A stretch of 64,000 nucleotides of DNA, taken from NCBI GenBank assembly GCA_034189385.1, contig JAXHVD010000001.1:192001-256000 (forward strand), read 5' to 3'. This document shows, piece after piece, positions 12,585 through 45,858 of the stretch (the first letter of the stretch is position 1; the number at the start of each line of letters is the position of its first letter). Origin of the DNA: Thermodesulfobacteriota bacterium. Its GTDB lineage: Bacteria; Desulfobacterota; Desulfobacteria; Desulfobacterales; C00003060. Both the position numbers and the translations under genes were made by a program. A model generated the notes under the pieces. It did no database searches. It saw only the letters and a program-made list of their open reading frames with translations, and was not told where the DNA came from.

Positions 12585-12718
12585 TCCTATTTGCAGGAGC
12601 CCACTTCATATCAATCATGCCTGATTTCGAACTGTTAAGGGAGACATTACCCTTTCCACTGGCAGCTGGCGCAGCCAGTGGATTGCCACCATTTTAATGC
12701 TCAGATGTGCCACTGACT

Positions 12719-14863
12719 ATGATCCGCATCACCGACATCTTAGACGCCATCAGTGCCTATTACCCGGAGGGAGATTTGGATTTGGTAGAACGGGCCTATG
12801 TCTATTCTGCCCGCGTCCATGAAGGTCAGGTGAGACTCTCGGGCGAACCGTATCTTTCCCATCCCTTGGAAGTGGCCGGGCTATTGACAGAGTTAAAGCT
12901 GGACACAGTCAGTGTGGCCGCTGGGCTCCTCCACGATGTATTGGAAGACACCGATGCCACTGCTGAGAGACTGACAGAGATGTTTGGTCCCCGGGTCACC
13001 CATATTGTGGAAGGTGTGACCAAGTTGGGCAGTCTCTCCTTTAGGAGCTCTGAGGCCCGGCAGGCTGAGAGCATACGCAAGATGATTCTGGCCATGGCCG
13101 ATGACATACGGGTCATTTTGATCAAGCTCTGTGACAGACTCCACAACATGCGGACCCTTCGGTTCCAAAAGGAGCATAAGCAGATTAAGATAGCCCAGGA
13201 AACCGTTGACATCTATGTTCCTATTGCAAATCGCTTGGGCATTTACTGGATGAAGAACGAGTTGGAGGACATCTCATTTTTGTACCTTCTTCCTCACGAA
13301 TACCGAGATATTGCAGGCCAAGTGGCCAGAAAGAGCGAAGAACAACAAAAATACATTGAAACCATCAAAGAGATTATCGGAAACAAGATGGCCGAGGCCG
13401 GCATCAACTGTGAAGTGGAGGGGCGCCACAAACATTTCTACGGGATTTACCAGAAGATGGTAGCCCAACAGGTGAGCTTTGAGGATGTGTATGACATCCT
13501 GGGCTTTCGCATCATTCTTGATACGGTCCAGCAATGCTACGAGGCCTTGGGGGTCCTTCATTCTATCTGGAAACCCATTCCAAAGCGTTTCAAGGATCAT
13601 ATAGGCATTCCCAAGCCGAACATGTACCAATCCCTTCACACCACCGTCATAGGGCCGTTTGGCGAGCGGGTGGAGATTCAGATCCGCACCAAAGAGATGG
13701 ACCGGGTGGCGAGAGACGGCATTGCTGCCCACTGGCAATACAAAGAGGGAGAGGCCTTTGACAAGAACGACAGTCAGGTTTTCGCCTGGCTCCGAAAGCT
13801 TGTGGAGGAGCAGAAGCATGTTCAAGACCCGCAAGAGTTCATGGAGACCGTGCGGATCGAGCTGTTCCCCAACGAGGTCTATGTGTTCACCCCTCAGGGC
13901 GACGTGTTGAGCCTGCCCAAAGGGGCCACCCCCGTCGATTTTGCCTATGCCATCCATTCTGAGGTAGGCAATCAGTGTATGGGCGCCAAGGTGGATGGGC
14001 GCATGGTGCCTCTGAAGTACCAACTGAAGACCGGACAGAGGGTGGAGATTTCCACCTCTTCTAAGCACAGACCCAGCAAAGACTGGCTGAGCTTTGTAAA
14101 GACAGCAAAGGCCCGTTCTCGCATACGCCAACACATCAAGGCCGAGGAAAGAAAACAGAGTCTGGAACTTGGCCATGAGATGTGCGAGAAGGCCTTTCGG
14201 AAATACCACTTGAGTTTCAACAAGCAGTTGAAATCAAGTGAGATGGCAAAAGCCATCCAGGACCTTGGCTACAAGACGGCCGATGACCTTATTGCCGGTG
14301 TGGGATATGGCAAAGTCACAGCCCTTCAGGTGGTCAGGTATTTTGTTCCCAAGTCGGAACTGAAGGAGACAAAAGAGAGCATCGTCGGAAAACTGAAGCA
14401 GCGTATCCGGGGCAAGAAGCCTAAGTCAGGTATTCTCGTCAGGGGGGTGGATGACGTACTGATCCGCTATGGCAAGTGTTGCAGCCCTCTGCCCGGCGAC
14501 CCTGTCGTTGGATATATTACCCGGGGGCAGGGCGTCACAGTGCACCGTAAGTCGTGCCCCCATGCCCTCAGTATGGACTCAGACCGTCGGATTGAACTCG
14601 AGTGGGTACCGGAGTCGGATGAAGTCTATCCTGTGACGATCCACGTTCTTTGTCAGGATAAGATGGGACTTCTTGCAAACATCACTGCTGTGTTGAGTGA
14701 GGGGGCGGCAAATATACTCAATGCCACCGTAAAGACCCTTGCAGACGGCCGGGCAGAGTGCTACTTCACCGTTTCTGTATCAGGCGCCGAGCACTTGGAC
14801 AAACTCATGAAATCCGTTCACAAGATTAAGTACGTCATAAAGGTGAGCAGGCTGGCGGCCTAG
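12719..14863 (+). CDS. rel: Bifunctional (p)ppGpp synthetase/hydrolase, long RSH
   Basis: HD motif LLHDVLED, RFKD synthetase motif, YQSLHT, TGS (TPVDFAY), CCSPLPGD, C-terminal ACT domain; alternative GTG start at 12707. Confidence 0.95.
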   Translation: MIRITDILDAISAYYPEGDLDLVERAYVYSARVHEGQVRLSGEPYLSHPLEVAGLLTELKLDTVSVAAGLLHDVLEDTDATAERLTEMFGPRVTHIVEGVTKLGSLSFRSSEARQAESIRKMILAMADDIRVILIKLCDRLHNMRTLRFQKEHKQIKIAQETVDIYVPIANRLGIYWMKNELEDISFLYLLPHEYRDIAGQVARKSEEQQKYIETIKEIIGNKMAEAGINCEVEGRHKHFYGIYQKMVAQQVSFEDVYDILGFRIILDTVQQCYEALGVLHSIWKPIPKRFKDHIGIPKPNMYQSLHTTVIGPFGERVEIQIRTKEMDRVARDGIAAHWQYKEGEAFDKNDSQVFAWLRKLVEEQKHVQDPQEFMETVRIELFPNEVYVFTPQGDVLSLPKGATPVDFAYAIHSEVGNQCMGAKVDGRMVPLKYQLKTGQRVEISTSSKHRPSKDWLSFVKTAKARSRIRQHIKAEERKQSLELGHEMCEKAFRKYHLSFNKQLKSSEMAKAIQDLGYKTADDLIAGVGYGKVTALQVVRYFVPKSELKETKESIVGKLKQRIRGKKPKSGILVRGVDDVLIRYGKCCSPLPGDPVVGYITRGQGVTVHRKSCPHALSMDSDRRIELEWVPESDEVYPVTIHVLCQDKMGLLANITAVLSEGAANILNATVKTLADGRAECYFTVSVSGAEHLDKLMKSVHKIKYVIKVSRLAA

Positions 14864-14882
14864 TGTCAATAGACAGGCCGGT

Positions 14883-15074
14883 TCAGGCCGGCTTTACGAC
14901 CAAGCCGGAACGGAGGCACCTTGTACATACCTTGATGCGCTTGACTCGGCCGTTGCTGATGGCGCGAACGCGCTGTAGATTTGGGTAGAAGCGTCGTTTG
15001 GTCAGGTTGTGGGCATGACTGACATGGTGACCGGTCATAGGTTTTTTTCCACATATTTCACAGACTTTCGCCAT
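14883..15074 (-). CDS. rpmB: 50S ribosomal protein L28 (zinc-ribbon form)
   Basis: [10 protein letters not shown]...[17 protein letters not shown]...[17 protein letters not shown]. Confidence 0.97.
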
Positions 15075-15221
15075 AATATCAAGACCTCCAAAGTTCAAAA
15101 AAGTTGCCCCTATCATGCTAAAACACTTACATCTATCATTTAAATAGCCATTTTGCAAACTTTTTTTACCCATAAGGTGTCACACTGCAACGTGTGTCTC
15201 CCTTTTCACTCTGGCAGCGTT

Positions 15222-15677
15222 TTATGACTTATTACTGTCGGCGCTTATTGCCCGGGCTCTAACCTCCTCAACTTGTATTCCTTCCCGCACAAAGAGGGCC
15301 GCTGCCACACCGATGGGTCGTTTCCGCTCACCTGAACGGCCCCCTAAGCCTCAAGAAGGGCTCTTGTCTTTCAGAAAGCAGATCTCAATCTTATTTTTCT
15401 TGATCATGTCAAGGGCGGCAAAGGCACCGTTGACAAAGGCCGTGGTCACGTCGTCACCGGCAGGGGTGACGACCCTGGCCCGACCCTCTAAGACATCAAA
15501 GCCGTCGCCTCCGTCAAGGTCTGAGCGTGGCCTGGGGGTGGGCAGCCCTCCGAGTTCTTCAGGGCAGAGAGCAAGCACGGCTCCCTCAGAGATCCTCTCT
15601 AGGAGGGCCGGGCTGGGACTGGTCCGGCCATCGTAACGGCAATAGTGGCCCAGAAGGCAGGCACTTGCAGCAATCAT
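15222..15677 (-). CDS. DUF523/TudS (thiouracil desulfidase family) protein, predicted selenoprotein (Sec at UGA 15351-15353)
   Basis: SACLLG..CRYDG, LCPEELGGLPTPR, LKDKSPS-UGA-G; the frame continues with family-like GVAAALFVREGIQV to TAA at 15222; GGAGGAG RBS. Confidence 0.85.
15324..15350 (-). promoter_or_regulatory. Putative bacterial SECIS element
   Basis: 11 nt after the UGA: stem CCGUUC/GAGCGG with apical loop AGGU. Confidence 0.7.
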
Positions 15678-15990
15678 CACAAAAACTCCTCCATGGTTTT
15701 TACAAAGACCGCTAGAGTTATTTCCTGGCCCTTTCAAGGTTCCCTGTGCGGCAAAACAAGGTCGACGCTTTCTTCACTCTTCTCACGGCGGCAGAAGGTG
15801 CAGACAATATAGGGCCGACCAAGAAAAGGCAAGCGTATTTGTCCTCCCTTGCGGGCGGAGGGCGTCACTATTTCCTTGAGAACCATCCAGGGGCCATGTA
15901 GGATGCTTTCCGTCTTTTGAAAGGGCGCTGGATGGCGTCTGCAGGCAGCCAAGAAGAAATTGGCATTTCAGTCAGTTCAGAGGAAAGCCT

Positions 15991-30827: not shown

Positions 30828-30915
30828 GGAGGGATGGCCGAGTGGTTGAAGGCGGCGGTCTTGAAAACCGTTTCCCTGAAAGGGGACGTGGGTTCGAATC
30901 CTACTCCCTCCGCCA
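30828..30915 (+). tRNA. tRNA-Ser (TGA)
   Basis: Acceptor GGAGGGA/TCCCTCC, anticodon loop CT-TGA-AA, long variable arm, GTTCGAATC, encoded CCA. Confidence 0.96.
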
Positions 30916-31094: not shown

Positions 31095-31187
31095 GGAGAG
31101 ATGGCCGAGCTGGCTGAAGGCGCTCGCCTGCTAAGCGAGTGTGGGAGGAAACTTCTACCGAGGGTTCGAATCCCTCTCTCTCCGCCA
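31095..31187 (+). tRNA. tRNA-Ser (GCT)
   Basis: Acceptor GGAGAGA/TCTCTCC, anticodon loop CT-GCT-AA, long variable arm, GTTCGAATC, encoded CCA. Confidence 0.96.
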
Positions 31188-44847: not shown

Positions 44848-45858
44848 TTGAACAAAACGGAAAAAAAGACAAAGCCTAGTGTTGTCCGCGCCCTGGGGAT
44901 CTCCTCAGGGGGTCTGGACAGCATTCTTTCTGCCCTGGTGCTCAAGGATCAAGGCATCGAGGTGGCCTGGGTCAATTTTGAAACCCCATTTTTCAGTTCA
45001 CATAAGGCCCGTCGAGCGGCCCGCATGACAGGGATTCCCCTGTTCGTGAGAAACATCACGAAGGTCTACGTTGAAATGCTCAAAAATCCCAAGTGCGGCT
45101 ATGGAGGGCACATGAACCCTTGCCTTGATTGTCATGCCCTCATGTTTCAGCTCGCAGGAGCCCTAATGAAGAAAAAAGGGTTTGATTTTCTCTTCTCCGG
45201 CGAGGTTCTAGGCCAGCGCCCCATGTCCCAGACCAAGCCGTCGCTCCGCTACGTTGAAAAAAACTCCGGCTTTGAAGGCTACATCCTGCGGCCCTTGAGC
45301 GCCAAACGGCTGGCCCCTACCATTGCCGAACAGGAAGGCCTTGTGGACCGTGACCGCCTGTTAGATATCACCGGTCGGGGACGAAAGGAACAAATCAAGC
45401 TGGCAGAGGTCTTTGGCATTACCGATTACCCGGCTCCGGCCGGCGGATGTCTCCTTGCGGATGTGGGGTTTTCCAGGCGCCTTCGAGATCTCTTTGATCA
45501 CCAGCAGTCCTGTGAGGAGCGGGACTTTGAGCTTCTGAAGTACGGTCGTCACTTTCGTCTGGACGATGAACACAAGGTGATTGTGGGACGTACCAAGGAA
45601 GACAACAAACAGATCTCTACGCTTATGGATACAAAAAAGGACATCACGCTCCGCATGGCCGATATGGCGAGCCCAACAGTCCTGATTCCCAGCGGTGCCC
45701 CGGAAAAGATCATACACGATGCCGCAACCCTTTGTGCGACCTATAGCAAGGCCAAAGAGGGCACCAGCGCCCGTGTGTTCGTGAAGAGCCCCCGTGGTTC
45801 AAAGATAGTCACTATCTTGGTCGTTCCCCGCGAAACATGCTCTCAGTATCTTATATAA
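44848..45858 (+). CDS. PP-loop tRNA sulfur-transferase-like protein (ThiI/MnmA-related, DUF814-type C-terminus)
   Basis: SGGLDS, NPCLDCH, GEVLGQRPMSQ, PAGGCLL, GRHFRL. Confidence 0.82.
   Translation: MNKTEKKTKPSVVRALGISSGGLDSILSALVLKDQGIEVAWVNFETPFFSSHKARRAARMTGIPLFVRNITKVYVEMLKNPKCGYGGHMNPCLDCHALMFQLAGALMKKKGFDFLFSGEVLGQRPMSQTKPSLRYVEKNSGFEGYILRPLSAKRLAPTIAEQEGLVDRDRLLDITGRGRKEQIKLAEVFGITDYPAPAGGCLLADVGFSRRLRDLFDHQQSCEERDFELLKYGRHFRLDDEHKVIVGRTKEDNKQISTLMDTKKDITLRMADMASPTVLIPSGAPEKIIHDAATLCATYSKAKEGTSARVFVKSPRGSKIVTILVVPRETCSQYLI

Follow-up and report, generated by a model that had tools for sequence, protein, structure and literature searches.

The desulfidase TudS, a member of the DUF523 family, is known from a series of structures (PDB 6Z92-6Z96, 6ZW9; PMC10611767). 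Three cysteines (Cys10, Cys43 and Cys104) hold its [4Fe-4S] cluster and the fourth iron is left for the substrate. Catalysis is assisted by Glu45, Ser101 and Ser103; the uracil ring of the substrate lies between Tyr18 and Pro102, the ribose lies between Tyr18 and Tyr110, and the phosphate is bound by Arg17 (PMC10611767). The same catalytic domain is found in RudS, a TudS-DUF1722 fusion that acts as a tRNA 4-thiouridine desulfidase (PMC11417400). A member of the family containing selenocysteine (Sec) was first printed in 2025, when a Sec-containing DUF523 protein (COG1683/YbbK) of Desulfosarcina sp. BuS5 was presented among nine new selenoproteins found by deep-Sep (mSystems 2025, PMC12013277). 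The paper states that a search of other Sec-utilizing bacteria found no TGA-containing homologs of this protein and, in the available part of its text, the Sec residue is not treated as a cluster ligand. A 2026 review (PMC13188914) enters the BuS5 protein as PF04463 with the motif SxSUG. Table 1 of this review also includes HesB-like, Fe-S oxidoreductase-like and 2Fe-2S CopZ-family selenoproteins, which are predicted metal or Fe-S binders, and, according to its estimate, the binding of atoms or chemical groups is a property of about 20% of selenoprotein families, what is bound being a metal or a metal-derived group such as an Fe-S cluster in about 70% of these. No paper demonstrating that a catalytic [4Fe-4S] cluster is naturally ligated by Sec was found in open-access full text.

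The protein described here is a further member of this family, which it largely extends together with its relatives. It is encoded in the window, i.e. the whole stretch of 64,000 nucleotides that was analysed (contig JAXHVD010000001.1, positions 192,001 to 256,000). The gene and its immediate surroundings comprise the following features:

15222..15677, minus strand: putative Sec-containing TudS/DUF523-family coding sequence, 151 aa (ATG 15677-15675, Sec-UGA 15353-15351, TAA 15224-15222; translated with TGA as U)
15351..15353, minus strand: in-frame UGA, predicted selenocysteine codon U109, aligned with the [4Fe-4S] ligand Cys104 of TudS
15315..15344, minus strand: SECIS-like hairpin (core CCGUUC 15339-15334 / GAGCGG 15329-15324, loop AGGU 15333-15330, lower stem GGG/CCC)
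15686..15692, minus strand: Shine-Dalgarno-like GGAGGAG, 8 nt 5' of the ATG at 15677
14883..15074, minus strand: rpmB (ribosomal protein L28), the next downstream gene, 147 nt past the stop (Pfam PF00830, E 1.4e-25)

In a conventional ORF listing, the minus-strand ORF is closed at 15351 by a TGA that immediately follows ...LKDKSPS. The read-through frame (15677-15222) contains this single in-frame TGA, located within the SPS[C/U]G motif, and its translation with TGA as U gives 151 residues, U109 being followed by 42 sense codons before the TAA. The orthologs share the start M(I/V/L)AASACLLG with the window protein. The original prediction, made from the letters of the window, had described a TGA at the cysteine of the family motif, a 42-codon tail and a hairpin; all are present in the sequence as it described them, coordinates included. 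Its central proposal, a hidden DUF523/TudS selenoprotein with Sec at the position of an Fe-S ligand, agrees with the alignment to Cys104 of TudS, with the sel genes of the genome and with the conservation of the TGA and of the tail. Hence the UGA is very likely a real selenoprotein codon, at which Sec would be inserted, in a gene that standard gene calling missed.

The read-through protein matches Pfam PF04463 (2-thiouracil desulfurase, DUF523) with 101.9 bits for a cut-off of 34.7 (E 4e-29), and the match runs uninterrupted across the TGA, covering residues 2-136 of the protein and the first 136 of the 141 profile positions. An NCBIfam search with the same protein gave no hit. TudS is the sole solved relative retrieved by a sequence search of the PDB (6z92 and four further entries, E 3e-17). 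An AlphaFold2 model computed from 52 aligned relatives has a mean pLDDT of 92.3, its lowest-confidence part being the loop after U109 (mean pLDDT of 69 for residues 111-120). The comparison of this model with known structures by Foldseek led to five significant matches, all of them TudS (top 6zw9/6z93/6z96; E 7e-14, TM 0.75, 41% identity). The segment LKDKSPS-U-G of the window protein aligns with LKEGSPSCG (L97-G105 of 6z92), U109 falling on Cys104. By alignment, the ligand positions Cys10, Cys43 and Cys104 of TudS correspond to C7, C38 and U109, the catalytic positions Glu45, Ser101 and Ser103 to E40, S106 and S108, and the substrate-contact positions Arg17, Tyr18 and Pro102 to R14, Y15 and P107. 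The original prediction had assigned the cluster ligands to the SAC, CPE and SPSC motifs, which is where the aligned positions C7, C38 and U109 lie, the third being a predicted Sec. From this homology, we infer that the Sec would ligate a [4Fe-4S] cluster and that the protein would be a desulfidase.

Besides the predicted Sec at the third ligand position, the window protein differs from TudS by the deletion of the RIYN segment that carries the ribose-stacking Tyr110, by two extra cysteines of its clade, Cys13 and Cys100 (V16 and A95 in 6z92), and by the location of its gene upstream of rpmB. It differs from RudS by its size of 151 aa, with PF04463 as sole domain and without the C-terminal DUF1722. 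The conservation of the residues was examined among 129 unique relatives, a set biased by the search patterns used for related loci and for which the search with an 8-row alignment covered 11 of the 64 parts of the collection. In this set, S5, C7, C38, E40, S106 and P107 are invariant (129/129), S108 is kept in 127 and R14 and Y15 in 121 relatives, and position 109 is occupied by C in 99 sequences, by U in 30 and by nothing else. Cys13, which belongs to a CRYDG motif beside the phosphate-binding Arg, reaches far outside the Sec clade (97 of the 129 sequences of this pattern-biased set), and Cys100 is largely clade-specific.

A search of 37 genomes of the genus, including the window's own, identified an ortholog (E<=1e-30) in 19 of them, with 62-73% identity to the window protein. 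The codon found in the SPS[C/U]G column is TGA in 18 of these 19 genomes and TGC in the remaining one (G008). In an even order-wide sample of 401 genomes, 54 have a match at E<=1e-25, and the 24 closest additional non-genus matches were analysed. A maximum-likelihood tree of 55 sequences (quick search, SH-aLRT), including the genus loci and these 24 matches, places 45 of them in one clade (SH-aLRT 100), apart from the other ten, which are ordinary TudS-type paralogs from this order. The TGA is found in 29 members of this clade (18 from the genus, six from family f24, two from f32 and three from f59) and a Cys codon in the other 16. The TGA orthologs are thus spread over four families and go down to 45% identity with the window protein. 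The presence of the same UGA in related genomes, which the original prediction had put forward as a check, is observed in the same column of 28 further orthologs. One more Sec form, L083, was found in addition to these 29 and brings the number of Sec forms to 30. Outside the order, none was found at the SPS[C/U]G position in the 389 non-order genomes of a 401-genome phylum sample; in the four non-order matches flagged for a TGA, this codon is the terminal stop of a Cys form.

At least eight changes between Sec and Cys are needed on this tree, or three if only well-supported branches are counted, and near-identical proteins can differ by Sec or Cys at position 109, for example L029 (Sec) and L027 (Cys). 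In the outgroup-rooted tree, the window's genus, which is almost wholly Sec-bearing, forms a paraphyletic group at the base. The ancestral state of the clade is therefore probably Sec, and Cys would have arisen by repeated Sec-to-Cys changes, as far as a weakly resolved tree can indicate.

The BuS5 protein belongs to this same 45-member clade (SH-aLRT 100): the sequence given in Table S2 of PMC12013277 corresponds letter for letter, by eye, to the translation of locus L070, which is 54% identical to the window protein. Both proteins share the Pfam family, the SPSUG motif and the position of the Sec. Whereas the published description concerns one organism, the present set contains 28 further TGA forms (29 with BuS5) plus L083, so that the published statement on the lack of TGA-containing homologs of the BuS5 protein can be corrected. 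The caution of the original prediction about novelty was well placed, as the SxSUG DUF523 family was already in print (PMC12013277, PMC13188914). What is new is the breadth of the clade with its 30 Sec forms, the probable ancestry of Sec with repeated reversion, the predicted location of Sec on a cluster ligand, the loss of Tyr110 and the link with rpmB.

The frame located after the UGA stays under purifying selection. Among the 19 genus sequences (171 pairs), pN/pS is 0.29 over the 27 alignable codons after the UGA versus 0.26 over the 100 codons before it, with a pS of about 0.6. The family is systematically mis-annotated: of the 120 closest database entries, 45 are predicted proteins whose last residues are ...SPS, having been cut at the UGA. 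In the contigs of run X1 that cover the TGA (depths of about 39 and 64), there is no alternative base, hence neither the TGC nor the TGT at 15351-15353 that would have spoken against the original prediction, but X1 is possibly the source sample and does not provide independent support. A sequencing error is in any case irrelevant because 28 other orthologs bear the TGA. X1 also contains two variants, with similar depths of 34.7 and 31.6, which are distinguished by eight positions in 15353-15474 and are both joined to a shared piece bearing the TGA; these variants correspond to two strains coexisting in the X1 sample.

Bacterial SECIS elements are stem-loops that closely follow the UGA and have G/U in their apical loop. 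In the window, 11 nt (GGCUUAGGGGG) separate the UGA from the hairpin core CCGUUC-AGGU-GAGCGG (15339-15324), whose six pairs include one G-U and whose apical loop AGGU contains G/U; a GGG/CCC pairing lengthens the stem to 15344-15315. When the 18 Sec genes of the genus are aligned, the stem is paired in 88.7% of cells, versus 20-53% after a shift of the 3' partner by 1-3 columns. Covariation is seen in one pair (AU 8, GC 5, GU 3, UG 1), formed by the third positions of an Arg codon and an Asp/Glu codon. RNAalifold retains only four pairs (-0.92 kcal/mol) and a 71-nt stretch around the hairpin has an ordinary folding energy (z = 0.18). What sets the hairpin apart is the conservation of its position rather than how stable it is. 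The covariation evidence is modest because the stem overlaps the codons of the conserved peptide RSGD/ER, so that protein constraint explains part of the conservation.

The association of the hairpin with the UGA was evaluated with a rule combining at least six paired positions out of seven in the stem and a loop of 3-8 nt with GG or GU, starting 15-25 nt after the codon. This rule is passed by 25 of the 29 Sec genes and by two of the 26 Cys forms (2/16 in the clade, 0/10 in the outgroup), shuffled sequences passing at 0.22-0.33. A looser test requiring five pairs was dropped as too permissive, shuffles reaching 0.38-0.53. The sequences being related, an independent-pairs test of hairpin against Sec state was also carried out; its p value of 0.5 comes from three contrasts on supported branches and has no power. 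The two Cys genes that pass the rule, L027 and L064, look like recent converts. The hairpin of the original prediction, with its start 11 nt after the UGA and its G/U loop, is conserved in position. The opposite outcome that had been considered, a nonsense pseudogene whose close relatives have Cys and no conserved hairpin, does not correspond to these data: the hairpin goes with the UGA forms and the TGA is present in 18 of the 19 genus orthologs.

In the Sec genes of the other families, a different small hairpin is located two bases further on (GCGC-AGUU-GCGC, GCGC-AGGC-GC or GAGC-GGUC-GC, identified by eye), within an insertion of about 14 codons. Two Cys forms from f24, L051 and L056, are nested among Sec forms and do not possess this hairpin-bearing segment after the motif. 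Such a loss fits the proposal that the main role of the segment would be to encode the SECIS. In the window's genus, the loop is found 17 nt past the UGA and the segment that follows the Sec has 12 residues, whereas the BuS5-type genes have a loop at +19 and a segment of about 22 residues. A search of Rfam, carried out over the window at gathering thresholds and over 15150-15450 at E up to 10, gave no SECIS family but only a chance match to a snoRNA, and no Rfam family covers the region of the hairpin.

The genome that contains the window (G000; 4.13 Mb, 64 contigs, 90% complete) carries four components of the Sec machinery, all found above curated cut-offs. Three are the protein genes selA (612.6 bits), selD (388.8 bits) and selB (370 bits); the fourth is a tRNA-Sec gene (72.2 bits), identified by ARAGORN as tRNA-SeC with anticodon TCA, which is the only tRNA found for UGA in this genome. 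The complete selA/selB/selC/selD set, whose presence the original prediction had proposed to verify, is therefore there. The selD gene itself carries one in-frame TGA. In-frame TGAs at classical Sec positions (GUAAK, CARLUHS, GGUxxGxCH) occur in selD and in at least five further genes of the genome:

G000, contig C29, 10803-11726: selD with in-frame TGA
G000, contig C23, 30207-32042, and contig C34, 67410-68171: fdhA-type genes with in-frame TGA (fdhA CARLUHS and fdhA-like)
G000, contig C23, 185122-185487, contig C28, 20105-20473, and contig C62, 112270-112632: three FlpD/MvhD-type genes with in-frame TGA

Where they can be read, these other selenoprotein genes have G-rich hairpin loops, mostly 17-23 nt past the UGA (partly by eye), and the distance of the DUF523 hairpin falls within this range. 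Weak sub-threshold matches to the tRNA-Sec model in the window come from two tRNA-Ser genes located 180 nt apart (30828-30915 and 31095-31187, anticodons TGA and GCT).

Several other explanations of the in-frame UGA can be considered. Gene callers, which finish the protein at the UGA in 45 of the 120 best database hits, treat it as a real stop, and the gene would then be a nonsense pseudogene or would naturally encode a 108-aa protein, the downstream similarity being a decaying remnant. This is very improbable: the same TGA is found in 29 orthologs from four families, down to 45% identity, the downstream frame is intact and constrained like the upstream part, the 108-aa product would be deprived of one cluster ligand and of the helix and strand that complete the fold, and the genome possesses the Sec machinery. 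There is just as little reason to believe that the UGA is read as a residue other than Sec, for example as Cys or Trp, whether by means of a suppressor or near-cognate tRNA or because the genetic code had changed locally. Cys is indeed tolerated at position 109, as shown by 16 clade members, but TGA is used as an ordinary stop, right after the conserved C-terminus, in 13 of the 29 Sec-form genes, tRNA-SeC is the only tRNA found for UGA, and the hairpin accompanies the UGA forms.

A third explanation, unlikely but less so than the previous two, accepts the insertion of Sec and questions its role. The Sec would not be a cluster ligand but a free selenol, for example one that accepts the abstracted sulfur in a selenopersulfide relay, or the redox partner of a nearby Cys, and Cys100 or Cys13 would take a structural or ligand role. 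HdrA offers a parallel, as its Sec197 is described as belonging to a Cys-Sec pair and not as an Fe-S ligand (PMC13518236), and the clade does have the extra Cys13 and Cys100 that TudS lacks. However, a coupled Cys13-Cys100 pair had to be rejected, since the two residues vary independently (both in 58 sequences, Cys13 alone in 39, Cys100 alone in 5 and neither in 27; n=129). Furthermore, C7, C38, E40, S106, P107 and S108 are kept, position 109 is only U or C in the 129 relatives, and U and C swap freely at this position between the near-identical L027 and L029, as would be the case for an equivalent ligand. The explanation that we retain, and that appears likely, is that of a TudS-type [4Fe-4S] protein in which the UGA would be decoded as Sec, predicted to replace the third cysteine of the cluster.

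For this TudS-type selenoprotein, the following model can be drawn from the TudS mechanism. SelB and Sec-tRNA(Sec) would bind to the hairpin on the mRNA being translated, leading to the insertion of Sec at codon 109. U109, Cys7 and Cys38 would then hold three irons of the [4Fe-4S] cluster, and a 4-thiouracil-type base, stacked between Tyr15 and Pro107, would bind to the free fourth iron through its thiocarbonyl sulfur. Glu40, Ser106 and Ser108 would aid the hydrolytic removal of the sulfur as sulfide via a [4Fe-5S] state, as for TudS. As the ribose-stacking Tyr110 is deleted, the substrate could be a base, a nucleoside or a nucleotide. A point against this model is that no canonical ThiI (s4U synthase), which could provide a 4-thiouracil substrate, was found above cut-off in the 90%-complete genome. 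The sole match to the ThiI model (TIGR00342) is weak (28 bits), concerns the PP-loop part and is located at 44890-45297 of the window (G000:C1:236890-237297), in a 350-aa open frame. The removal of Se from seleno-nucleobases, also evoked in the original prediction, found no support and was set aside, as the tRNA 2-selenouridine synthase gene (selU, TIGR03167) was not found in the same 90%-complete genome. A second PF04463 gene, L170 (G000:C23:64654-65076; 144.9 bits), is of the Cys form; its open frame of 326 aa is free of internal stops and would have the size of a RudS-type TudS-DUF1722 fusion. The Sec protein is therefore not the only PF04463-family desulfidase of the cell.

In most selenoproteins, Sec is a redox nucleophile; here, it is found at the ligand position of a predicted substrate-binding, non-redox [4Fe-4S] cluster. 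As such a cluster would do no redox chemistry, the usual reason for using Sec would not apply. The HesB-like, Fe-S oxidoreductase-like and CopZ-family selenoproteins are similar to the window protein in that they have Sec where their homologs use a metal-binding Cys. However, those proteins are involved in electron transfer or cluster assembly, whereas the cluster of the window protein would be non-redox, substrate-binding and catalytic. Taken at the scale of the order, the balance of the evidence leans towards a Desulfobacterales clade in which Sec would naturally ligate a catalytic, non-redox [4Fe-4S] cluster and would be ancestral and kept by selection in dozens of species, some lineages having gone back to Cys with deletion of the SECIS segment. 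If so, the clade would contain Lewis-acid Fe-S enzymes with a naturally occurring Fe-Se(Cys) bond. The existence of near-identical natural Sec and Cys versions allows a direct comparison, the L029/L027 pair being suited to probe the effect of selenium on the cluster, and 77Se would give a spectroscopic handle on a catalytic cluster.

In the window, the relA/spoT gene (12707-14863) converges on rpmB and an RNase_H_2-family gene diverges upstream of the DUF523 gene. Among the 45 clade loci, several of which do not extend far enough to include the next gene, 21 show a gene for L28 downstream of the DUF523 gene; none of the ten outgroup paralog loci does. The DUF523-rpmB order with converging relA/spoT (12707-15677 in the window) is conserved within the genus and also beyond it, in other families of the order, and the DUF523-rpmB arrangement is absent beside the ordinary TudS-type paralogs (ten outgroup loci). 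In one locus from f24, L062 (G186:C34:5782-6628; gene 201-848 of the oriented locus), a Cys codon follows the conserved C-terminus ...IEEIS, where its close relative L041 has a TGA stop, and the Sec-DUF523 frame continues in frame into rpmB, giving an open frame of 229 aa. This could possibly be a DUF523-L28 fusion, or the gene may merely have lost its stop.
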